This document shows positions 843 to 11,539 of a stretch of DNA of 11,539 nucleotides, in pieces. This DNA comes from Gemmatimonadota bacterium. Lineage in GTDB: Bacteria > Gemmatimonadota > Gemmatimonadetes > Gemmatimonadales > GWC2-71-9. The notes under the pieces are model-generated. The model worked only from the letters and a program-made list of their open reading frames with translations, did no database searches and was not told the DNA's origin. The position numbers were made by a program, and so were the translations under genes. Numbering within the stretch: position 1 is the first letter of the stretch; every line of letters starts with the position of its first letter. Location of the stretch: contig QHTZ01000093.1 in NCBI GenBank assembly GCA_003221005.1, positions 1 to 11,539 of the forward strand, read 5' to 3'.

Positions 843-1175
843 CTCAAAGCTTCGCTCTGAGCTAGCATCGTCGCGTGACACCGCCCGCCGCCTCGTTCGC
901 GAACCCGTAGCGTGCCACGCGCCCCGTCATGGGCACGCTCGCCGGCGACGATGGCGCGGTTGAGGACGCCGACCGAGGCAACCGGCACGACGGCAGCTCA
1001 GCGCCCTGGTCGGTCCCATCCTACGGGCTCCGTTCGTGGACCGGTGTCGCGTTTGACACCCCCAATGCCGCGAAAGCGCCCTAAACGGCTCCAGGCCCAA
1101 TGCGCAGATTCATTCGGGGTGCCCCAAGCGTAGTCCGCGGTCGGCGCCCAGGCATCGCAGCCTTCGGGGGTCGTC

Positions 1176-4100
1176 ATGAGCTGGATCGGTGTCGGGTTGC
1201 TCGCCGCCGGCATCCTCGCCGCGCAGGGGATCTCTACCCTAATGCGCCAGGATCGGACGCCGGAAGTCCGTTTCTTCGGTGCACTCACGCTGCTGCTCGC
1301 GGGTCTCGGTCTCGTGGCTTGCGGGCCGTTGTTCGTCGGACGGCTCGTACTCAGTCCGGAGCTCGGCACCGTGATGGTGGAAGGATCACTCGCTCGGTTC
1401 GCGTTGGCGGTCGGCATCGCCGGTGGCTGCGTGGCCGGCGGCCTGGGTTGGCACGTGGCTCGATTGGGCGCCGGCTGGGCAAGTCGTCTGCCGTGGCTCC
1501 TCGGGGTGGGCGCGGGCGTCGGCGTCGTGGCGGCTACCCGTTTACTCCCCTTCAATCCCGACGACGCAGCCACGCTGCGGGTCTACGCGTACGACCTGTG
1601 GTGGCCAGTGCCCTTGATCTGGCTCTCGGTTTGCGTTGTGGATACGGCGCTCATCGTGCTGCGCGCGGGCAGCACACTGTGGCGCTGGTGGGCGGCCACG
1701 ATCTTGATTTCGGCCATCGGGTTCCGCGCGCTGGCCCGACCGACCCTCGTGGACCCGACGTCTAGAGCCCTGTGGCTGGCCGCCTTGGTGGGCTCCGGGT
1801 TGTCGGCCTTGGGGCTGACCGTGACTTGTGCGCGGCGCGCGATCCTCGCTCATCGTGAAGGGACGCTCCACGCGCCGTCGCTCAAGCGGCCCACGCTCCG
1901 ACAGAGCATCCTCTTGACGGGGCTGACCCTGGTTTCGCTCAGTGTAATCTTCCCCTTCGTCTTCTACCTGAACGTCGACACCGCGCTGCTGCTGGCGATG
2001 TTCATCATCGGCTGGACACTCATCGCGGAGCTGACCGAGGGGGGGCCACTCCAGAAGCTGGCGCAGACGATCGTGACGGCGGAGGTGCCGCACGCACGAG
2101 TCTTACTGGCCGAATGGTGGCGACAGGTCCGCGCGCGGCTCACCGGCTGGGCGCAAGGGCTCGGCGCGCACCTCAAGGGACTGGTGAGCCCCGGATCTTG
2201 GCCCGCCGCTCTCCTGAGGGTGATTGCGCTGGTGGTCGCCCTGGTCGTCTTGAGCGAGATCCCGAATTCCGGCAAGACGATCATCGAGCCGTTCAATGCC
2301 TCCCGCCCCACCGGCCCGGACAAGGTCGGCCGGGCCTTCTCGGACCGGTTATTCCACGACCTCGGCCTCCTCGACCAGCAGCTGCAGCCGTCGGTGGTCA
2401 CGCCGGAGGGAGGCGCCGGGAAAATACGCTACGTCACGATGGGCGTCGGGACGGGGATGACCAATGCGGCCCTCGGGGAGATCAAGGACATTGCAGTGGC
2501 CGGGGTCCACATTCCGTTGACGCTCCTAGTCGCGCCGGTCCAGGGTCCCATGCACGCCCTGCTCAACGTGCGCGTGATCACCGGCAACGTCGAGGCCGAC
2601 CGGCGCAGTTACACGGTGCTTGCCAGTGCGAGCACGGGAATGACGTGGACCGCGTCCGTGCCGCGCGACGGGTCCAAGGTCGCCGATACGTCCGCCGCCG
2701 ATGACGCGGCGACGGATCTCGCCGAGCGGCTGGCGTTCAAGATCATCAGTACCGATCGGCGGTTCACGCCACTGGGGATGACGACGTCGTGGGATGCGTT
2801 TCAGGCGTTCCGCGAGGGACTCGAAGCCTGGAGCGACTTCAAGGCTCGGAACGAAGCCGATGCCCAGACGTACGACGGTCTCACCCGCGCCATTGCCCGC
2901 TTTCAGGAAGCGACCAAGCAGGATCCCGCCTTCGCGCTGGCGCACTACCGCCTCGGAGTGGCCCTCGAGGACGACGGCCAGCCGATGGCCGCCGCGCAGG
3001 CGTTCCGCGCGGCGTTGAGCGCCGACCCGCACTTCGTGGCCGGCTATAACGCACTCGCTTACCACCTCTTCTTCTTTGACGACTATTACTACGCGACGGC
3101 CGCTGCTTTGCCTCCCAAGGCACCGTCTACGGAGGTTGCCCGTCAGGCGCGCCGCGACGAAGCTCGCGCCCTCTGGCAGCGCGCGATCCTGCTCGCGGAG
3201 GGCGATGCCCAGACCAAGGCGTCGGCGTACTACGGGTTGTGTCGGTACGCGCTCGAAGCCAGACAGTTCGGCGCCGCGTATTTCTACTGCACACGCGCCG
3301 GCAAGATCTACGCGGAGTTATCCCGCGAGGTGCTGTCGGCGCTGCGAGGTCGGGACGCCGAGGCCTCCGCGCTCAACGCGCTGGGCGTGGCGCTGGAACT
3401 CAGCGACGCCCTCCACGAGGACTCAGTGGCCGAGGACGAGTGGTCCTGTCAGGCGAGGGAGGTAGCTGCGAGCGGGACGGTGAAGCGGGCGACCATCACG
3501 CACAGTTGGTATGCCGCGACTGCGCTCCCGTATTACCGCCGAGCGATCGCGCTGCAGCCCAATGACCTCACTGTGCAGTGCAACGCGGCGAGCACGGCCT
3601 ACGTGTTGGGCGACACGCACCCGATGCGGGCGCTCGAGTCGCTGGCCGCCGCGCACCGCACGCTAGCGGACGGGTACCGGGAGAGCGCCAAGGGGGCGGG
3701 TAGCGACACGGTGGCGTCGGCCTCCTATCGGCTCGCGCTGGAACAGTACCAACGGGCCATCGAGCTCGATCCCGCAGACGTGGTTTCCCTGAACGGATAC
3801 GCGTACGCCTTCTGGAGCTGGCGACTCGGGTGGCCGGCCTCCAGGGAACCGACCACGGCCATGGCCGAAAGCGCGGAGGCGCACGCCCGCTCCGCGGTCA
3901 CGCTGACCGCCACACAGCGGAGCGCTCTGGAGGCCATCGTTCGATCCACGTTGGGCGAGGTTCTGCTAGCGGAGGCCAGACCGCACGAGGCCATCGTCGA
4001 GCTGCGGTACATACTCGACCATAACCTCGCGCCGAAGCACGCCTCCTACGACGAGCTCCGTTGGGACCTGGCCGAGGCCGATCTCTGCGCCGCCCACAAC

Positions 4101-4655
4101 GACGAGGATGCCCGGCTGACGGATTCACGCCACATCCAGGCAATGAAGATGGAGGCGGGTGAGCTGCTCGAAGGCATCCGACACAACGAGGAGCCGCGCG
4201 AGTTTCGGCCGTTCAGCAACGCGCCCCGCCGCCTGGACCCGGCGCACACTCAGCTGGCCTGCCAACGCAGGTTCGCGCTGCAGAGCGTCGGCGATTCGGC
4301 CGAGACGTGGTTTCGGCTGCTCGAGGGCCGACCCCACTACTCGGCGTACAAGATCTGCCGTTGGCTCGGCGTGCTCGGCGACGCGTACGATGGCTCGCTC
4401 GAGCCCCTCGACAGCCTCTGGCTACACGTCTGGGGTTCCGGGGTGGACGGACGCATCCGGGTCGGCGACGCCCCGCGCGACGCGATCTTTCTGTCGTACA
4501 CGCCGAGGAACAGCCACGGCGAATACCTCGCCCGGCTGGAGAATGCTGCCGGTGGGCCGGCCTCCGGCGCGTACGAGATCGCAACGTTCGCCAATGATCG
4601 CCCCGATCGCTGTCCTAGAAACCAGATCGAACTGACCTTCATTCGAGAGCGCTAG
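1176..4655 (+). CDS. Large multi-pass membrane protein with TPR repeats
   Basis: 1159 aa. About 9-10 hydrophobic segments in the first ~360 aa. TPR motifs: AIARFQEATKQDPAFALAHYRLGVAL, FRAALSADPHFVAGYNALAY, YYRRAIALQPND, YQRAIELDPADVVSLNGYAY. GGGGG 7 nt upstream of the ATG. Confidence 0.8.
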   Translation: MSWIGVGLLAAGILAAQGISTLMRQDRTPEVRFFGALTLLLAGLGLVACGPLFVGRLVLSPELGTVMVEGSLARFALAVGIAGGCVAGGLGWHVARLGAGWASRLPWLLGVGAGVGVVAATRLLPFNPDDAATLRVYAYDLWWPVPLIWLSVCVVDTALIVLRAGSTLWRWWAATILISAIGFRALARPTLVDPTSRALWLAALVGSGLSALGLTVTCARRAILAHREGTLHAPSLKRPTLRQSILLTGLTLVSLSVIFPFVFYLNVDTALLLAMFIIGWTLIAELTEGGPLQKLAQTIVTAEVPHARVLLAEWWRQVRARLTGWAQGLGAHLKGLVSPGSWPAALLRVIALVVALVVLSEIPNSGKTIIEPFNASRPTGPDKVGRAFSDRLFHDLGLLDQQLQPSVVTPEGGAGKIRYVTMGVGTGMTNAALGEIKDIAVAGVHIPLTLLVAPVQGPMHALLNVRVITGNVEADRRSYTVLASASTGMTWTASVPRDGSKVADTSAADDAATDLAERLAFKIISTDRRFTPLGMTTSWDAFQAFREGLEAWSDFKARNEADAQTYDGLTRAIARFQEATKQDPAFALAHYRLGVALEDDGQPMAAAQAFRAALSADPHFVAGYNALAYHLFFFDDYYYATAAALPPKAPSTEVARQARRDEARALWQRAILLAEGDAQTKASAYYGLCRYALEARQFGAAYFYCTRAGKIYAELSREVLSALRGRDAEASALNALGVALELSDALHEDSVAEDEWSCQAREVAASGTVKRATITHSWYAATALPYYRRAIALQPNDLTVQCNAASTAYVLGDTHPMRALESLAAAHRTLADGYRESAKGAGSDTVASASYRLALEQYQRAIELDPADVVSLNGYAYAFWSWRLGWPASREPTTAMAESAEAHARSAVTLTATQRSALEAIVRSTLGEVLLAEARPHEAIVELRYILDHNLAPKHASYDELRWDLAEADLCAAHNDEDARLTDSRHIQAMKMEAGELLEGIRHNEEPREFRPFSNAPRRLDPAHTQLACQRRFALQSVGDSAETWFRLLEGRPHYSAYKICRWLGVLGDAYDGSLEPLDSLWLHVWGSGVDGRIRVGDAPRDAIFLSYTPRNSHGEYLARLENAAGGPASGAYEIATFANDRPDRCPRNQIELTFIRER

Positions 4656-4698
4656 CGGGAGGGCCCGGTGCCCAGGAGCGCGGTTTACGCGAGACGCG

Positions 4699-4726
4699 GA
4701 ACGTCCCACGAATCCGTGCGACGTTC
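4699..4726. terminator. Stem-loop between convergent genes (possible terminator)
   Basis: GAACGTCCCACG-AATC-CGTGCGACGTTC: 12-bp stem with one mismatch, 43 nt after the 4655 stop. No U-tract. Confidence 0.35.
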
Positions 4727-4803
4727 ATCTGGCTGGTCCAAGGGACGTCCGTGTCTGTCGCATCGGAGCTTCTCTTCCGTGTGAGTGTGCCGTGCGGGAC
4801 GTC

Positions 4804-4824
4804 TGCCACCACTCTTGCCACCAG
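4804..4824 (+). repeat. TGCCACCA-N4-TGCCACCA motif, copy 1 (putative integrase arm-type site)
   Basis: TGCCACCACTCTTGCCACCAG, 20/21 identical to 10800-10820. Confidence 0.7.
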
Positions 4825-4842
4825 CGCGCGACCCTGCGACGG

Positions 4843-4850
4843 CTAGTCGC
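4843..4850 (+). repeat. CTAGTCGC direct repeat, left copy
   Basis: Identical to 9429-9436. The pair brackets the three-gene module 4910-9415. Confidence 0.45.
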
Positions 4851-4909
4851 AGAGTCGACGCTGGGAAGTCAGAGGACATTCCTCTCCGCTGATGGCGCGG
4901 TCCTGAGCG

Positions 4910-5617
4910 CTACTGCGGCCACGTGGCGAAGCCCGCGTCGGGCGCAGGGTCGAAGCACTGAAACCCATCCGACCCCAAGTGTGCATGCCGTGCGCAAGTG
5001 TCGGCATCCCATTGAAACGCCGATGGCTCACCCAGCGCGCTCGCGTCGACGGACACCCTGATCTCTGCCCCGTCGATCGTGAACGGCACCGGCGTAACGA
5101 CCATGGCTTCCCCTGTCAGCAGCGGTCTCAGGTCGTACAGCAGTCCGCTAAACTCCGTTCCATCCCACTCGACGTCGACGAAGAATTCAAACGGTCTCGT
5201 CTGGCCCGGGCCCGACGGAAACGCGCCGTCCTGGCCAGAAGGAAACGTGGTCGGATCCGTGTCAAGCCCGAACAACCAGCCCTGGACGCCGAGTCCTCCG
5301 GACACCGCAGCGGGACTCCCGGGCACAACGTCGGCGAGATCCATCGTGAAGACGAATGTTCGGCCCATCTTGCTCACCTCGACCCTGACTATGTCGAGGT
5401 ACCCTGGAACCTTGGCGGCAGACCCTGGCCCCGTATTCCTATTCCAAGCCGCGTCGCCGGCGGGATCGGTGACGACACTGGTCAGTGGCGCTGCCGCGTC
5501 GAATGCCGCTGCCGGGTGGCCGCGCAACGCCGTCGGGGCGTTTCGCTCAGTGCAGCCCGCGAGAAAGGCGAGCAGCCCGCCGGCGATAATGAGCTGCCAC
5601 GGTCGGTTTCGATTCAT
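4910..5617 (-). CDS. Hypothetical lipoprotein (beta-rich, acidic)
   Basis: Likely start is ATG 5617 (MNRNRPWQL...), preceded by AGGAGG, rather than 5689. 235 aa with lipobox LAGC. Asp-rich motifs TDPAGDA, LDIVRVEV, GLDTDP, DPAPD. Confidence 0.8.
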   Translation of the reverse strand: MNRNRPWQLIIAGGLLAFLAGCTERNAPTALRGHPAAAFDAAAPLTSVVTDPAGDAAWNRNTGPGSAAKVPGYLDIVRVEVSKMGRTFVFTMDLADVVPGSPAAVSGGLGVQGWLFGLDTDPTTFPSGQDGAFPSGPGQTRPFEFFVDVEWDGTEFSGLLYDLRPLLTGEAMVVTPVPFTIDGAEIRVSVDASALGEPSAFQWDADTCARHAHLGSDGFQCFDPAPDAGFATWPQ

Positions 5618-5726
5618 AACGCCTCCTCGGAGCCCGCTGCCGTCGGCAAGGCGCGGGCATTGGGGTCTCGCTGTGCCCGGTAACGCCACCAGGCTGGCGC
5701 GCTTTCATCCCCGCCTCCAAGACACC

Positions 5727-6635
5727 TTACGGCTTCCACGCGGGCTCTCGGCCGCTGTCGCTGAGGCGGGTGACGCCCGAGCCGTCGGGGCTCATCACAT
5801 AGATCTCGTCCTTGTAGGACTCGTTCTCGCGCGCGAACGCGATCTTCGAGCCGTCCGGCGACCAGGCCGGCGTAAGGTCTTCAAGCGGGTGTATGGTGAG
5901 CCGGGTGACGCCCGAGCCGTCGGCGTTCATCACATAGATCTCCCCGTAGTACTCGTCGCGATCGCTCGCGAAGGCGATTCGGCTGCCGTCCGGCGACCAG
6001 GCTGGCGTGTAGTCGTCCGCCGGGTTGTTCGTGAGGTTCTTCACGCCCGTCCCGTCGGCATTCATGACGTAGATGTCACGGCTCAGCGTCGGGCCGACGC
6101 GGCGACTGAAGGCGATCTTCGCGCCGTCCGGCGACCAGGCCGGCCAAGCGTCATCCGCAGGATCGTGTGTGAGGTTCGTGACGGCCGAGCCGTCAGGGTT
6201 CATCACGTAGATCTCACCGTTGCCGTCGCGATAGCTCTCGAAGGCGATCTTCGTGCCGTCGGGCGACCAGGCAGGCCCCCAGGCGGTCACCGGGTCGTTG
6301 GTGAGCCGGGTGACTCCCGAGCCGTCGGCATTCATCACATAGATGTCGTAGATCCGGTGGGTCCCGTCGCCGTCGCTCGCGAAGGCGATCCTTCTGCCGT
6401 CCGGCGACCAAGCCGGGTCGATGTCCGTCGCGGGGGTGTTCGTGAGCCGGCTCACGCCCGAGCCGTCAGCATTCATCACATAGATCTCCTGGTTGCCGTC
6501 GCGAGCGCTCACAAAGGCGATCGTGCCGAGTGGTGGCGCGGCCGACGGCCCGGTGGAGTCGGACCCGCTGCACGCCAGCGCGACCAATAGCAGCGCACCC
6601 GCGCCGACGAGCAACCACTCACGAACTCGCTTCAT
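5727..6635 (-). CDS. TolB-like six-bladed beta-propeller (PD40 repeat) lipoprotein
   Basis: 302 aa, GGAGG RBS, lipobox-like ALAC. Six ~44-aa repeats IAFxSx[26 protein letters not shown]. Lacks the TolB N-terminal domain and any tol-pal context, so it is not tolB itself. Confidence 0.9.
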
Positions 6636-6771
6636 ATGCGCCTCCGTCTAAACAGGCCCCGGCAGATTCACAGCCTCCGTCCCGTTGCGCGACAGCCACT
6701 TACGCTGTTGCCAGGCCGAGCCAGAGCGAATCAGCCGTGTCTCAATTCGCCACGGGGGTCCCTGAGCGCTA

Positions 6772-6814
6772 ATTTTGAACGACGGCGTAAGAGCCGGGTC
6801 AGAAACCGGTCAGA
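6772..6814 (-). promoter_or_regulatory. Putative SARP-type binding box and -10 element driving the lipoprotein genes
   Basis: Minus strand reads TCTGACC-ggtt-TCTGACC-cggc-TCTTACG (11-bp period), then 8 nt, then CAAAAT (6777-6772). Confidence 0.6.
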
Positions 6815-6823
6815 TGGTCTATC

Positions 6824-9415
6824 ATGCTGGAACTGCGGACGTTCGGCGGGCTTGCGATCAAGGAAAACGGCGTGCCTCTCTCCGGCGCGGCCGTGCAGCG
6901 CAAGACCCTCGCCCTCCTCGCCCTCCTGGCCGCCGCGGGCCGCAAGGGCGTGAGCCGCGACAAACTGGTGGCGTACCTCTGGCCCGAGCGCGATACCGAT
7001 CGTGCCCGCCACCTCCTCAAACAGGCGTGCTACGCCCTCCGTCACGACCTCGGCGAACCGGAACTCCTGCTCGGCGCGACCGAGCTCCGGCTGAACCCGG
7101 CGGTGATCTCGAGTGATGTGCAGGCGTTCCAGGAAGCGCTTGACGGGGGTGACCTCGCGGCCGCCATGCGAGTCTACGCGGGCCGCTTTCTCGACGGATT
7201 CTACGTGGATGGGGCGGGCGACTTCGAGCGCTGGGCGGAGGCGGAGCGTGCTCGGCTACTCGAGCGGGCCTGTGGGGCCCTCGAGTCGATGGCAGCGGAG
7301 GCCACCGCGCGTGGCGACGTGCGAGAGGCCGTGGGATGGTGGCGCCGCCTCTCTGAGCTCGATCCACTGAGCTCGCGCGCGGCGCTCGGCCTGATGACGG
7401 CCCTGGAAACCGCTGGCGAGCGCGCCAAGGCGATCGAGCACGGGCAGGCGCACGAGGCGTTCGTCCGAGCCGACCTCGGCGCCGAGCCCGCGTCTGAAGT
7501 CCTCGCGCTGATCGAAGGTCTACACAATGAGACCGCGAACAGAGGACGAGTGCCGCGGGTTGCGCCTCGGGCCACGCCCGGAGGCGAGGTCGTGGAGACG
7601 ACGAGCCGCACAGCGGTCACAGTCCCACCCGTGTTGCTGCGGCCGCTGCGCCGCGCCGATGTCCTCAGTCGCATTGCCTTCGCTGCGGTCGGCGTGTTGC
7701 TCGCCGGCGGCGTAGCCGGATACGCGCTCTGGCCGCACCAGCGGGCTGCCGGCGGGGCCGACGTCCCGGCCGACCGGAAGATACTCGCCGTGCTCCCATT
7801 CGAAAACCTCGGGTCACCGGACGAGGAGTACTTCGCAGACGGCCTCTCGGAGGCGATCATCACCCGGCTCGGGAGCATCGGCAGCCTGGGCGTGATCGCG
7901 CGGCAGAGCGCAATGCACTACAAGGGGACCACGAAGACCCCGAGACAGATCGGCCAAGAGCTCGGCGTGGGATACCTCCTTACGGGAACCGTGCGCTGGG
8001 ACCGGCGCGGCGGGGAGACGAGCCGTGTGCGGGTGACCCCGGCCCTCGTGCGCACTTCAGATGGTGCACAGCTCTGGTCAGCCCAGTTCGACACATCGCT
8101 CGCCGGGGTGTTTGTGGTTCAATCAAGCATCGCGGCCCAGGTGGCCGGCGCGCTCGACATCGCGCTCGACACGCCGGAGCAGCAGGCCCTCGAAGAGCAA
8201 GCAACCCAGGACCTGGCGGCGTACGACGCGTACCTTCGGGGTCACGAACTGCTCGAGCGAGGCTGGGATCCGGTCGAGTTGAAGGGCGCCGCGATCATGC
8301 TGCGACGAGCGGTGGCCCTCGATTCCAGCTTCCGTCGCGCCCTGGTCGAGCTGGTGAGGGCGGATCTGGATCTCTACATCAACTACACCGACCAGACGTC
8401 CGCACCACTGCGCGAGGCCAAGACGGCGCTGGATCGCTTGCTGCGTCTCGGGCCGGACCGCGCGGAGGCGCGCTGGGCCCTGGGAACCTACTATCTGCTC
8501 GGCGAGGATCACGACCCGCGTCGAGCGGCAGAGCAGTTCCTCCGGCTGGCACGCGCACAGCCCGGCGCCCCGCCACGAGGGCTGGCAGACGCGACTCGAC
8601 GCGCCGGGCGATGGGACGACGCAGTTGGGTACCACCACAGGGTCACGCGGCTGAACCCCCGATCGCCGCGCGACGTGGGGGCCGCGGGCGATACCTACCT
8701 CCAGCTGCGTCGCTTCCGCGAGGCGATCTCCGCGTTCGATCGCGTGCTCGAAGTCAACCCACAGTCCGCCGGCGTCGCCCTCGACAAGGCTCTCGCGTAC
8801 TTGGGCGAGACAGGCGACCTCGTTGGGACGCAGCGGCTCCTGCCGGACGTCTCGCTGAACATCGCGCCGACGGGTGTCGAGTTTCAGGTCGTCACGCTCG
8901 CGGACCTGGTCACCCTCCTGGACCCCGGCCAGCAGGCGACGCTTCTGCGGCTCACGCCGGCGACCCTTGACGGTGACACCGCCGGATGGGCGCTCGCCCG
9001 GGCGATGCTGTTTCGGCTGAGGGGCCAAGCCGCGCTGGCGCGCGCGTACTTCGACTCAGCGCGGAGCGTGCTCGAGGCACGCCTGACCCGGCATCCCGAC
9101 GCCTACGGCCGATTACGCTGCATGCTCGGGGTGGCCCTCGCCGGCCTCGGCCGCGCGAGCGACGCGATCCGCGAGGGCGACCGTGTGGTCCACATCATGC
9201 CCGTGTCGAAGGATGCCATGGAGGGGCCGCTGATGCTGGCCAACCTCGCGCGGATCTACGTGCTGCTGGGGGAGCGAGAAAAGGCCATCGATCAGTTGGA
9301 ACTCGTGCTCTCTCGACCCGGTCCGCTCTCGGCCAACTGGCTCAAGGCCGATCCGTTCTGGGATCCTGTGCGGACAAGCCCGCGGTTCCAGCAACTGGCT
9401 GCGGCGAGGAACTAG
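6824..9415 (+). CDS. Membrane-anchored SARP-family (wHTH + BTAD) regulator with TolB-N-like and TPR C-terminal region
   Basis: 863 aa. wHTH motifs LRTFGGL, LALLALL, SRDKLVAYLWPE. BTAD motifs SDVQAF, YAGRFLDGF, FERWAEAER, LDPLS. One TM helix IAFAAVGVLLAGGVAGYALW. Then LAVLPFENLG..EYFADGLSEAIITRL, TPRs, and the C-terminal DPFWDPVRTSPRFQQL motif. Confidence 0.9.
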   Translation: MLELRTFGGLAIKENGVPLSGAAVQRKTLALLALLAAAGRKGVSRDKLVAYLWPERDTDRARHLLKQACYALRHDLGEPELLLGATELRLNPAVISSDVQAFQEALDGGDLAAAMRVYAGRFLDGFYVDGAGDFERWAEAERARLLERACGALESMAAEATARGDVREAVGWWRRLSELDPLSSRAALGLMTALETAGERAKAIEHGQAHEAFVRADLGAEPASEVLALIEGLHNETANRGRVPRVAPRATPGGEVVETTSRTAVTVPPVLLRPLRRADVLSRIAFAAVGVLLAGGVAGYALWPHQRAAGGADVPADRKILAVLPFENLGSPDEEYFADGLSEAIITRLGSIGSLGVIARQSAMHYKGTTKTPRQIGQELGVGYLLTGTVRWDRRGGETSRVRVTPALVRTSDGAQLWSAQFDTSLAGVFVVQSSIAAQVAGALDIALDTPEQQALEEQATQDLAAYDAYLRGHELLERGWDPVELKGAAIMLRRAVALDSSFRRALVELVRADLDLYINYTDQTSAPLREAKTALDRLLRLGPDRAEARWALGTYYLLGEDHDPRRAAEQFLRLARAQPGAPPRGLADATRRAGRWDDAVGYHHRVTRLNPRSPRDVGAAGDTYLQLRRFREAISAFDRVLEVNPQSAGVALDKALAYLGETGDLVGTQRLLPDVSLNIAPTGVEFQVVTLADLVTLLDPGQQATLLRLTPATLDGDTAGWALARAMLFRLRGQAALARAYFDSARSVLEARLTRHPDAYGRLRCMLGVALAGLGRASDAIREGDRVVHIMPVSKDAMEGPLMLANLARIYVLLGEREKAIDQLELVLSRPGPLSANWLKADPFWDPVRTSPRFQQLAAARN

Positions 9416-9428
9416 TGGACTTCACGTT

Positions 9429-9436
9429 CTAGTCGC
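9429..9436 (+). repeat. CTAGTCGC direct repeat, right copy
   Basis: Identical to 4843-4850. Starts 13 nt after the regulator stop and abuts the displaced tRNA promoter. Confidence 0.45.
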
Positions 9437-9437
9437 C

Positions 9438-9503
9438 GGTTAGGGGTTGCACACCTCCCAGTGAATTGCGAGCTTCCGCACCTCGTGGAGAGGTGGCCGA
9501 GTG
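9438..9503 (+). repeat. Displaced tRNA-Ser 5' fragment plus upstream region (att-like site)
   Basis: GGAGAGGTGGCCGAGTG (9487-9503) is identical to tRNA bases 10899-10915. The upstream 49 nt are colinear with 10850-10898 (blocks GGGGTTGC, AGTGARTTGCGA, TTCYGC, CTCGT). Confidence 0.85.
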
Positions 9504-9544
9504 TTGGTAGACGCCATCGCTTGCTAGGTGGCGCCCCCTATCCT

Positions 9545-9739
9545 TCATAGAATCCCGCCGAGATGAAGAAGAAAGAATACCAGAGCTAGGAGTGCGGCCC
9601 CACTCCGCGCCGCGTGGAAGCGATTCCACCTTGCGAGCAGTGCGGCAGCCTTCGACGAACCCTCGTCCAGGTTCGGATCGGAGAGGCCGCGATTTGTGGG
9701 GAAGATGACGATGAGGGTAAACGGCACGACGCTCCCAAT
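9545..9739 (-). pseudogene. 5'-truncated DUF1772 (anthrone oxygenase-like) membrane protein fragment
   Basis: IGSVVPFTLIVIFPTNRGLSDPNLD...LLARWNRFHAARS resembles the DUF1772 C-terminal half (PFT..PTN..L..W...H..R). An in-frame stop lies just upstream (9761-9763) and the N-terminal helices are missing. Confidence 0.7.
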
Positions 9740-9973
9740 ACCACTAGACCTCTCCGAGTCTTATACTCCGAGGTCCGTTCGACCGAAAGGTCGTTCGCTG
9801 ACATCAATTGACGAGGGAGATCAGGATCGATCGTGCAGACAGTCCCCGCAACTCGTTCCGTGCGGAGTAAACATGCCGCCGGCCGCTGTCCGGCGCCACA
9901 CAGCGGTTATCCTAGGCACCGTCCTAACATCCGCCCCGCAGCCCCTGGATCACCTTTCGCCTCGGAGCCGAAC

Positions 9974-10438
9974 ATGTCATCGAATACGAACGTCGGGCTG
10001 TTGCACGGCCCGCGCTCTGCGCGCTGTACGCTTCCCATTCTCGTCGGCCTCCTTGCGCTCGCCGCCCCGCTCGTCGGTCAAGCGAGACGAGGCCACGTCT
10101 ATCACGTCAATTTCTATCAGGTCCGGCCCGGCGAGGAGAAGGCATACGATTCGGCGCTCGTCAGTGTCGTGACTCCGGTATTCGACGAGTTGGTGAAGCG
10201 CAAAGCGGTGGTGTCGTATCTGTTGCTCACCAAGACTGCCGGCTCCGGGGAGTACACGAATGTCGTCATTGTGGAGGTCGCAGCACCGTCGGCCGCGGAG
10301 GGCACTTTCCAACGGGAACTCGAGGCAGCCACGCAGTCGGTGTTCCACAAGTCTTGGAGCGACGCGACCGTGCGGTTCTCCGAGCTGCGCCGATTCATGC
10401 ACGCCGAGCAGTACACGGCGGCTGGCCAACGGCCCTAG
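9974..10438 (+). CDS. Hypothetical exported protein, possible dimeric alpha+beta barrel (NIPSNAP-like) fold
   Basis: ATG 9974 with GGAG at 9964-9967 is preferred over 9833. 154 aa, signal-like LPILVGLLALAAPLVG, and YHVNFYQVRPGEEKAY resembling that fold's N-terminus. Confidence 0.7.
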   Translation: MSSNTNVGLLHGPRSARCTLPILVGLLALAAPLVGQARRGHVYHVNFYQVRPGEEKAYDSALVSVVTPVFDELVKRKAVVSYLLLTKTAGSGEYTNVVIVEVAAPSAAEGTFQRELEAATQSVFHKSWSDATVRFSELRRFMHAEQYTAAGQRP

Positions 10439-10553
10439 CGGCGGCATAACACGCGTGTGATGACCTGGCGCCTCGCGGGCCGGCTGTCGGACATGCTGCG
10501 CGGTTACGTCTACTGCAACGGCGCGGGTGAGCCGCCCCGAACACACGCTGGAT

Positions 10554-10788
10554 GTCCACACGGCATACCTTCGGCGTGCATTGCGCGCAGGCAGGCATTC
10601 CGATCGTCCGCATCCAGCGGCTGCTTGGGCACTCGACCCCCGTGATGGCATTGCGCTACATGAAGCACGTGCCGGAGAATTATTTCGCGGCAGACGCGGC
10701 GCGCGTGGCTGCGAGTCTGTCGGGCATCGCCGATCGAGAAGCGAGCGCTCAGGCAGAGCCTACCCGGCAGGGGCTCAAGACAAGCTAG
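10554..10788 (+). pseudogene. Tyrosine recombinase/integrase C-terminal relic
   Basis: RHTFGVHCAQAGIPIVRIQRLLGHSTPVMALRY matches box II (RH...LLGH...Y). The His of HxxR appears out of frame (GTC CAC A CGG CAT), and the whole N-terminal part is absent. Confidence 0.88.
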
Positions 10789-10799
10789 CGGACACGGTG

Positions 10800-10820
10800 T
10801 GCCACCATTCTTGCCACCAG
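10800..10820 (+). repeat. TGCCACCA-N4-TGCCACCA motif, copy 2 (putative integrase arm-type site)
   Basis: TGCCACCATTCTTGCCACCAG, 11 nt after the integrase stop and 78 nt before the tRNA. Confidence 0.75.
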
Positions 10821-10858
10821 TCGACTCGGCGCCCGCATGTTGAGCAGTTGGTAGGGGG

Positions 10859-10887
10859 TTGCGTAAGCCTAAGTGAGTTGCGACGTT
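10859..10887 (+). promoter_or_regulatory. Putative sigma70-type promoter for tRNA-Ser/gltX
   Basis: TTGCGT-17 bp-GACGTT with TGn extension. The same geometry occurs at 9447-9475 (TTGCAC-17-GAGCTT, TGn). Confidence 0.5.
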
Positions 10888-10898
10888 CTGCTCTCGTG

Positions 10899-10989
10899 GG
10901 AGAGGTGGCCGAGTGGCTGAAGGCGGCGGTTTGCTAAACCGTTATAGGGGCTAATACCCCTATCGGGGGTTCGAATCCCCCCCTCTCCG
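10899..10989 (+). tRNA. tRNA-Ser(GCT)
   Basis: Acceptor GGAGAGG/CCTCTCC plus G discriminator. D-arm GCCGAGTGGCTGAAGGC, anticodon arm GCGGT-TTGCTAA-ACCGT, long variable arm ATAGGGG..CCCCTAT, T-arm GGGGG-TTCGAAT-CCCCC. CCA is not encoded. Confidence 0.98.
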
Positions 10990-11000
10990 TACCTCACCCC

Positions 11001-11539
11001 ATGTCCATCCGCGTCCGCTTCGCTCCGTCCCCCACAGGCTATCTCCACGTCGGCGGCGCCCGCACCGCCCTCTTCAACTGGCTGTACGCGCGCCACGAGG
11101 GCGGCAAGTTCCTGCTGCGGATCGAGGACACGGACAAAGAACGCTCGTCCGAGGAGCACACCCGCGTGATCCTCGACGGCCTCACCTGGCTGGGCCTCGA
11201 CTGGGACGAGGCGCTCGTGTTCCAGGGGGCCCGCATCAAGCGCCACCAAGAGACAGCCGACAAGCTGCTCGCCGAGGGAAAGGCCTACCTGGACGATGGA
11301 GCGATCCGGCTCACCGTCCCGCCCGGAGAGATCGCGTGGGACGACGCGGTCCACGGTCGGATCTCGTTCCAGGGCGCCGACATCAAGGACTTCGTGATCC
11401 TCCGGTCCGACCGCACGCCGCTGTACAACCTCGCGGTGGTCGTGGACGATCTCGACATGCAGATCACGCATGTGCTGCGCGGCGACGACCACATCTCGAA
11501 CACGCCCAAGCAGATCGCGCTGTACCGCGCGCTCGGGGG
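11001..11539 (+). CDS. gltX: Glutamate--tRNA ligase (5' part, runs off the window)
   Basis: [81 protein letters not shown], with HIGH-type motif HVGG. Not in the ORF track because there is no stop in the window. Confidence 0.96.

Follow-up and report, generated by a model that had tools for sequence, protein, structure and literature searches.

The tRNA-Ser(GCT) gene of a Gemmatimonadales metagenome-assembled genome (MAG) raises the question of how a tRNA gene comes to be preceded by a second copy of its own first 17 nucleotides (nt), with a fragment of a tyrosine recombinase gene lying between the two. The gene stands near the right end of an 11.5-kb contig (QHTZ01000093.1 of assembly GCA_003221005.1), the entire length of which (11,539 nt) was analysed and is referred to here as the window, and it is followed by the start of gltX, encoding glutamyl-tRNA synthetase. 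We read the region from ~4.7 to 10.9 kb, with a probability of roughly 0.75, as what decay has left of integrative elements of reversed polarity (a single element or, with greater likelihood, a pair), members of a Gemmatimonadales family that would enter upstream of the target tRNA gene by strand exchange in its anticodon loop.

A repeat search of the window reveals an ungapped direct repeat of 66 nt (9438-9503 and 10850-10915; 71% identical), the final 17 nt of which are tRNA positions 1-17 and are identical in both copies; this 17-mer alone is recovered within the window by blastn-short (E = 9e-5). Because the repeat is ungapped, the -35-like letters (TTGCAC at 9447-9452 and TTGCGT at 10859-10864) and the TGn/-10-like letters (GAGCTT at 9470-9475 and GACGTT at 10882-10887) share an identical register, as the initial annotation of this DNA had described. 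A profile built from 15 distinct integrase-to-tRNA spacers of relatives also matches 9429-9503 (E = 1.4e-13; profile positions -58 to +17), and the match ends exactly at +17. This segment is best read as a putative attL-type scar in which the 5' half of the tRNA gene was truncated at position 17. A 3' repeat of tRNA-Ser was sought in the window and none was found; given this lack of a displaced 3' fragment, and with gltX starting 11 nt past the tRNA, the locus does not have the form of a classical island recognised by a 3' fragment.

The integrase relic lies between the two copies, and the repeat search, the spacer profile and tblastn agree on the arrangement that had been noticed initially, a 17-nt duplicate of the tRNA 5' end upstream of the intact gene with the relic in between. 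By tblastn, 10561-10779 aligns with residues 332-404 of P0002, an intact relative of 406 amino acids (aa), at 67/73 identical positions (E = 5e-33), and no other P0002 fragments are detected in the window. The second catalytic arginine, the histidine and the tyrosine are retained (in R-H-T-F-G, G-H and R-Y-M) and everything N-terminal is gone, with the match to Pfam PF00589 (E = 1e-5; 25.9 bits, cut-off 27.1) covering profile positions 132-168 of 172. Intact P0002 matches PF00589 at 6e-23, has a SAM-like N-terminal domain, and aligns to the solved integrase 5c6k across the catalytic motifs. The relic is predicted to be a non-functional fragment of a true tyrosine recombinase; it ends 110 nt ahead of tRNA-Ser on the same strand, and the same integrase truncation is present in the metagenome loci L127 and L128.

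Homologues of the relic recovered in relatives by nucleotide and protein searches invariably face a tRNA gene, and most members of this integrase family occupy the same position relative to tRNA genes. Public genomes were queried with P0001, the full-length integrase of genome G004, and metagenomes with P0002, the integrase of G337 and the closest intact relative of the relic. The P0001 search yields 21 family loci in genomes, and in 14 of these there is a same-strand tRNA 48-167 nt past the integrase; at the others the tRNA is found 1.4-3.6 kb after the integrase (four loci), there is none (one locus), or the locus is at a contig edge (two loci). The tRNAs beside these family loci are those for Cys, Lys, Met, Asn and Ser(TGA), and six weaker P0001 matches (25-35% identity) do not show the pattern. 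Among 42 metagenome loci matching P0002, 11 break off within the integrase gene and were left out; 24 of the 31 examined have a same-strand tRNA, comprising 18 tRNA-Ser(GCT) at 112-143 nt, three tRNA-Cys at 116-117 nt and three tRNA-Ser(TGA) at 631 nt, and the other seven loci end within 210 nt. In the element layout a helix-turn-helix gene and the integrase gene point to the tRNA, with relaxase- or primase-type genes further up (Pfam identifies Prim-Pol/AAA_25 in L045). These comparisons support the assignment of the window element to an integrase family whose members lie ahead of the tRNA gene that they target and share its strand.

The expectation that full-length homologues of the relic would be found upstream of tRNA genes with displaced 5' fragments is thus borne out by the 14 of 21 and 24 of 31 loci, and by eight elements in which a displaced 5' half could be mapped (Table 1). 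In all eight the 5' block ends at position 37-41, within the anticodon loop; a second copy in the L053 array ends at 34. The exchange point supported by these mapped relatives is the anticodon loop, with the symmetric anticodon stem-loop as the likely core site, and the D-loop crossover proposed in the initial annotation is not supported. In that proposal a single element crossed over at position 17, so that the original host promoter with the first 17 nt of the gene survives as the upstream copy and all DNA rightward of 9503 belongs to the element. It has some attractions: the break in identity at 17/18 is abrupt and the similarity upstream fades gradually, the upstream copy begins to match the profile at -58, much like native integrase-less loci, and the BTAD gene stops just ahead of the copy. 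It is nevertheless opposed by the 8/8 relatives exchanging at the anticodon loop, including G617 (-1 to 39), whose spacer is 91% identical to that of the window, and G397 (-3 to 41), which occupies the same tRNA. Read from its sequence, the D arm also has no resemblance to the anticodon stem-loop expected as a core site, the promoter of the upstream copy is nearest to element arms and not to integrase-less loci, and P'-type sites at 4801-4828 put an element end 4.7 kb further left. We regard a D-loop crossover as quite improbable.

The stretch between the integrase stop codon and the tRNA, the P arm, contains two arm-type sites of the sequence TGCCACC, one at 10800-10806 and its partner at 10812-10818, together with a promoter-like block comprising the -35-like and -10-like letters of the right-hand repeat copy and a TGn at 10879-10881. 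This window spacer is identical at 101/111 positions to the spacers of G617 and L102, both of which lie beside intact integrases. Across 15 distinct elements the arms can be aligned, and two parts are conserved: a pair of TGCCACC sites 12 nt apart at -99/-87, and a block spanning ~-54 to -1, where TTGCA-type letters and TGn-GA(C/G)GTT are found. The displaced copies in G617 and G397 have unrelated upstream flanks with -35/-10-like letters of their own. Since the arm is conserved beside integrases and the native flanks at displaced copies are unrelated, the arm moves together with the integrase and takes the place of the native sequence upstream of the tRNA, in keeping with the initial proposal that the element brings its own promoter-bearing upstream arm. 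We infer that the conserved block is an active promoter.

Taken as a mechanism, attP would comprise the integrase-proximal arm, with its paired TGCCACC sites and promoter-like block, a functional tRNA copy that starts at ~-1 and ends in the anticodon loop, and a left arm with a second TGCCACC pair. Strand exchange in the anticodon loop would place the element upstream of the tRNA and join the element promoter and 5' half to the chromosomal 3' half and gltX, such that tRNA positions 1 to ~39 would be element-supplied and the remainder chromosomal; the former promoter and 5' half would be displaced to the far end of the element. The youngest element of the window (9.5-10.9 kb) would have been reduced to an open reading frame (ORF), the last 73 codons of the integrase gene and the promoter arm, and 9429-9503 would be the displaced promoter and 5' fragment of the gene's previous state, later cut to 17 nt by rearrangement or decay. 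In a tandem version of this scheme, an older element that has lost its integrase would extend over ~4.7-9.5 kb, and the upstream copy would be its right end.

Table 1. Features predicted in the window, numbered from its first nucleotide, and displaced tRNA 5' halves mapped in related elements (extent in tRNA positions)
Feature	Location	Strand	Basis or extent
Candidate decayed original 5' half of tRNA-Ser	4656-4695	+	Distance from the 4801 sites as G617 predicts; directly past TPR gene stop
Second arm-type site pair, P'-arm (left-end) type	4801-4828	+	TGCCACC at 4804 and 4816
ORF, 503 aa, no family	5079-6590	+	Overlaps the minus-strand PD40 gene
PD40 beta-propeller protein, 302 aa	5727-6635	-	Pfam PD40, 2e-58
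BTAD/TPR regulator, 863 aa	6824-9415	+	Pfam BTAD, 4.6e-11, and TPRs
Displaced promoter-like block (9429-9486) and tRNA positions 1-17 (9487-9503)	9429-9503	+	Repeat, blastn-short, spacer profile
Possible vestigial tRNA-like remainder	9504-9559	+	7-bp hairpin 9512-9533 with loop TTGCTA 9521-9526, then CCCCTATC 9535-9542 and TTC..GAATCCC
ORF, 154 aa from ATG, signal-peptide-like N-terminus, inside relic region	9974-10438	+	90% identical in L128, 100% in L127
Integrase relic, last 73 codons and stop	10561-10788	+	tblastn, Pfam PF00589
Element-borne P arm (integrase stop to tRNA)	10789-10898	+	Spacer profile matches 10774-10939, E = 6e-45
tRNA-Ser(GCT), intact	10899-10989	+	ARAGORN (sole tRNA in window); Rfam RF00005, 59.9 bits
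gltX (glutamyl-tRNA synthetase), 5' part	11001-11539	+	ORF list; leaves contig end
Displaced 5' half, tRNA-Cys, G026	13.4 kb upstream		-1 to 37, 100% identical
Displaced 5' half, tRNA-Lys, L043	10.4 kb upstream		0 to 38
Displaced 5' half, tRNA-Lys, L045	7.8 kb upstream		1 to 38
Displaced 5' half, tRNA-Met, L048	8.2 kb upstream		-4 to 39
Displaced 5' halves, tRNA-Cys, L053 (array)	6.6 and 7.8 kb upstream		-57 to 37 and -20 to 34
Displaced 5' half, tRNA-Ser(GCT), G397	6.6 kb upstream		-3 to 41, 100% identical
Displaced 5' half, tRNA-Ser(TGA), L134	6.9 kb upstream		1 to 39
Displaced 5' half, tRNA-Ser(GCT), G617	Other contig		-1 to 39; ARAGORN calls no tRNA there

The case for an older element at 4.7-9.5 kb begins with the arm-type sites. 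TGCCACC occurs just four times in the window, as the right-arm pair (10800/10812) and as the pair at 4804/4816, and the segment containing the latter is 26/28 identical to a pair located 159/171 nt past the displaced 5' half in G617 (blastn E = 2.5e-6; nhmmer E = 1e-3). A left-arm-type pair in this position puts an element left end near 4.7 kb, just past a gene coding for a 1159-aa TPR protein. The decayed original 5' half might be represented weakly by 4656-4695, for which the fractions of control windows scoring equal or higher are 0.02, 0.06 and 0.38 with three scoring schemes; collinear alignment to the G617 attL-to-P' stretch has p = 0.056. Of the genes in the interval, the BTAD/TPR regulator is probably cargo of the older element, with homologues (57%, full-length) ~1 kb upstream of the integrase in the related elements L097 and L119. 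Homologues of the PD40 protein (56-57%) occur inside the related elements L095, L096, L105 and G337, and this is weaker evidence of cargo because the repeat family is common; the plus-strand ORF overlapping it is probably a shadow of the PD40 gene. In soil runs the depth over the PD40 repeats is very high, with reads from many organisms.

The promoter of the upstream copy is closest to element arms (L104, 45/58; the unpublished genome G020, 44/58). It is 37/59 identical to the window's own arm, 35-38 of ~60 positions agree with the integrase-less loci G000:C3, G001, G015 and G017, and 30-33 of 63-67 with four others. The second arm pair, the cargo in related elements and the nearness of the upstream promoter to element arms favour a tandem array, and suggest a decayed array spanning ~4.7-10.9 kb; we would put the odds slightly on the side of two elements in tandem. 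Likewise we lean towards the upstream copy being the right end of the older element rather than the host's original promoter. A host-derived copy is a rather unlikely origin for it, although a profile match that starts at -58, as at integrase-less loci, fits a native host promoter as well.

Alternatively, a single element could occupy ~4.7-10.9 kb, the upstream copy having arisen as an internal partial duplication of its right end (for example by aborted or illegitimate recombination) with no second integration. One left-arm pair (4801-4828) and one integrase relic are detectable, as expected from this scheme; the upstream promoter is, however, of another subtype than the window's right arm (37/59, compared with 45/58 to L104), and the family does contain tandem arrays with several displaced copies (L053). 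We regard a partial duplication as improbable.

The sequence that follows position 17 bears on a further explanation, in which the upstream copy is a decayed tandem tRNA-Ser paralogue with its own promoter and the relic arrived independently. Local alignment of 9504-9559 to the 3' part of the tRNA has p ~0.02 in shuffles with gentler gap costs, a score reached by 1/372 genomic control windows, and p = 0.10 with stricter (standard) gap costs; there is no covariance-model match to this segment. The variable-arm- and T-arm-like letters amount to a marginal likeness. A paralogue would account for these collinear patches, which resemble the anticodon loop, variable arm and T arm, and the promoter block is shared with integrase-less loci. 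Against this, neither ARAGORN nor Rfam (even at E<=10) finds a tRNA at 9487, the post-17 similarity weakens with the stricter gap costs, and no second 5' copy was found at the tRNA-Ser(GCT) loci searched in 10 relatives or at the second such locus of the same bin. L128 lacks the upstream copy, and the displaced 5' halves of the family directly explain a promoter with a 5' fragment. Both other displaced Ser(GCT) copies, G617 (3/250) and G397 (5/250), likewise have a weak T-arm-like vestige past the identity block, as part of the element arm, and it is not seen at other tRNAs. A tandem paralogue is very unlikely as the source of the copy.

Several candidates in the same segment were set aside. 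A full pseudo-tRNA was rejected on the p of 0.10 with standard gap costs and the marginal value with gentler ones, and homology of 9504-9613 to the G617 left arm on control fractions (windows scoring equal or higher) of 0.26 and 0.46. A decayed 5' half at 9680, where agreement between L128 and the window starts and the sequence opens GGAGAGG, has a control fraction of 0.13, and an inverted match of 9670-9694 to the tRNA 3' end is at chance level, being among 8 similar pairs.

A number of observations weigh against the reading of the region as reversed-polarity elements exchanging at the anticodon loop. Identity in the window stops at position 17 and not at 37-41, with positions 18-33 at random level, so that truncation must be assumed. 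The upstream flank is 8 kb or longer at 13 genome loci, of which nine show no 5' repeat, nor is there one in the 9-10 kb upstream flanks of the four window-type loci L095, L096, L102 and L108 (4/4); either these elements are longer than the flank examined or their far ends have decayed. In the closest clade no intact element was seen with both ends on one contig. For the tandem version, the left-arm sites of the younger element, expected near 9646, are not detectable, the candidate 5' half at 4656-4695 is marginal, and the start of the upstream-copy profile match at -58 resembles that at the integrase-less loci G001, G000:C3, G015 and G017 (-54 to -47). As to promoter function, scanning 9300-11100 for the sigma-70 consensus gives no promoter call. 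Contigs from two metatranscriptome runs cover parts of 9327-10792 at depth 2-5, along with other window parts and the deletion joint described below, and contigs of RNA libraries cannot reveal a transcription start and may include DNA. Finally, the bin contains a second tRNA-Ser(GCT)-gltX locus, and the window copy may consequently not be the sole or essential one.

Presence/absence variation among close relatives is evident from L128, from genomes of the same genus and from a deletion variant in soil. L128, a metagenome locus 91% identical to the window, shares 456-843 and 9678-11135 with it; the interval 844-9677, including the upstream copy, is absent and a membrane-protein gene is found instead, and the relic is kept. 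Its promoter arm (3021-3130) matches window 10789-10898 at 78/116 positions and resembles the arm of G337; as this arm is of another subtype, the arms are mosaic and exchanged between lineages. In five of the six other genus genomes there is no P0002 match at E<=1e-40, and the sixth, G004, has one only through its integrase beside tRNA-Cys; the four genus genomes in which the tRNA-Ser locus was read have no integrase beside the tRNA. A 4236-nt deletion (4911-9146), with 4910 joined to 9147 and CT between them, is carried by contigs from three runs, two of soil DNA and one of an RNA library, and depth over the deleted segment is 3-8, compared with 14-18 on the flanks. This deletion takes out the PD40 gene along with the greater part of the gene for the BTAD/TPR regulator. 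The comparison with empty-site genomes that the initial annotation called for is therefore answered in part: L128 establishes the variation, but the genes left of tRNA-Ser vary among 10 relatives without upstream synteny, so that no clean empty site can be demonstrated for the window host.

The polarity itself is not unrecorded and belongs to a documented minority class: section 7 of PMC6563490 describes 5'-distal recombination at tRNA genes as considerably rarer than 3', and gives Zhao & Williams 2002 as its bacterial reference. Literature searches on replacement promoters at integrase-targeted tRNA genes and on Islander/tDNA/promoter returned nothing specific on 5'-end targeting. Archaeal elements have the same rare polarity, one case being also at tRNA-Ser; their hosts are archaeal and their element types unrelated. 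The window is a decayed member of a known, rare kind; what is new is the clade of Gemmatimonadales integrases with its arm sites, together with the corrected crossover site.

The reversed-orientation tRNA-gene island of Zhao and Williams (2002, J Bacteriol 184:859-860) reportedly lies upstream of its tRNA gene and has a duplicate of the gene's 5' part at the far end. A layout of this type means that the element must supply the 5' part together with a promoter. The window resembles that island in having an element upstream of the tRNA and the 5' part repeated at the far end, and differs in that it comes from Gemmatimonadota MAGs and a whole integrase clade is involved, at Ser, Cys, Lys, Met and Asn tRNAs, and in that the window copy is a relic, reduced to an integrase stump of 73 codons and a scar of 17 nt. 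An anticodon-loop class of tRNA-targeting tyrosine integrases was reportedly distinguished by Williams (2002, Nucleic Acids Res 30:866; cited in PMC6563490 and PMC1635311). The Gemmatimonadales family shares with it a tyrosine recombinase, an identity block ending in the anticodon loop and arm-type sites on both arms; it is unlike that class, and a mirror image of it, in that its block extends from the loop in the 5' direction, reaching that end of the gene and not the 3' end, and in that the 3' end of its integrase gene faces the 5' end of the tRNA.

Elements that replace the front half of a tRNA gene together with its promoter, and not its tail, show that the target gene can be restored from either side. 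The tRNA and its downstream neighbour gltX would stay linked yet come under the control of mobile DNA. Elements of this polarity escape island finders that search only downstream of tRNA genes, and the family, from a soil phylum that has received little study, provides many natural examples whose arm sites can be recognised; the window copy itself is a decayed scar and adds no new mechanism. Speculatively, and with more doubt than confidence, the whole Gemmatimonadales integrase clade could be obligately of reversed polarity at many tRNA identities, with the Ser(GCT) attP a complete, half-vestigial tRNA gene in which a promoter and a functional 5' half are followed by a 3' remnant that is T-arm-like and decayed. 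If so, the half-vestigial attP would record the capture of an entire tRNA gene, and the displaced tRNA promoter at the far end would read into the element and could drive element genes.

Among the remaining genes of the window, the 154-aa ORF within the relic region has no Pfam match, and its coverage by RNA-library contigs (depth 2-5) is no decisive evidence. The predicted gltX protein is 78-87% identical to that encoded downstream of tRNA-Ser(GCT) in 10 relatives. A terminator-like site was sought in the gap between the tRNA and gltX and none was found; in view of this and the 11-nt spacing, gltX is probably co-transcribed with tRNA-Ser. The second tRNA-Ser(GCT)-gltX locus of the bin (G000:C3:14108-14879, L022; 88% and 83% DNA identity) has no integrase beside the tRNA, and is either a true second copy or derived from a second population in the bin. 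In eight relatives (G015, G014, G026, G032, G034, G024, G028 and G010) tRNA-Ser(GCT) and gltX are 1-5 kb apart; the linkage is thus not universal, and the downstream side of tRNA-Ser(GCT) may also take insertions.

A second relic of the integrase family is present elsewhere in the window's genome (G000:C42, L023; 2074-2915), broken by two TGA stops and facing a tRNA-Lys(CTT). The same contig has a 43-nt copy of tRNA-Lys(CTT) positions 34-76 (3626-3668) located 783 nt downstream, a scar of classical polarity at the same tRNA. In L048 (14919-14963) and L047 (16179-16337), tRNAs with this family upstream likewise carry displaced 3' halves a few kb downstream, indicating that both polarities use the same tRNA gene.

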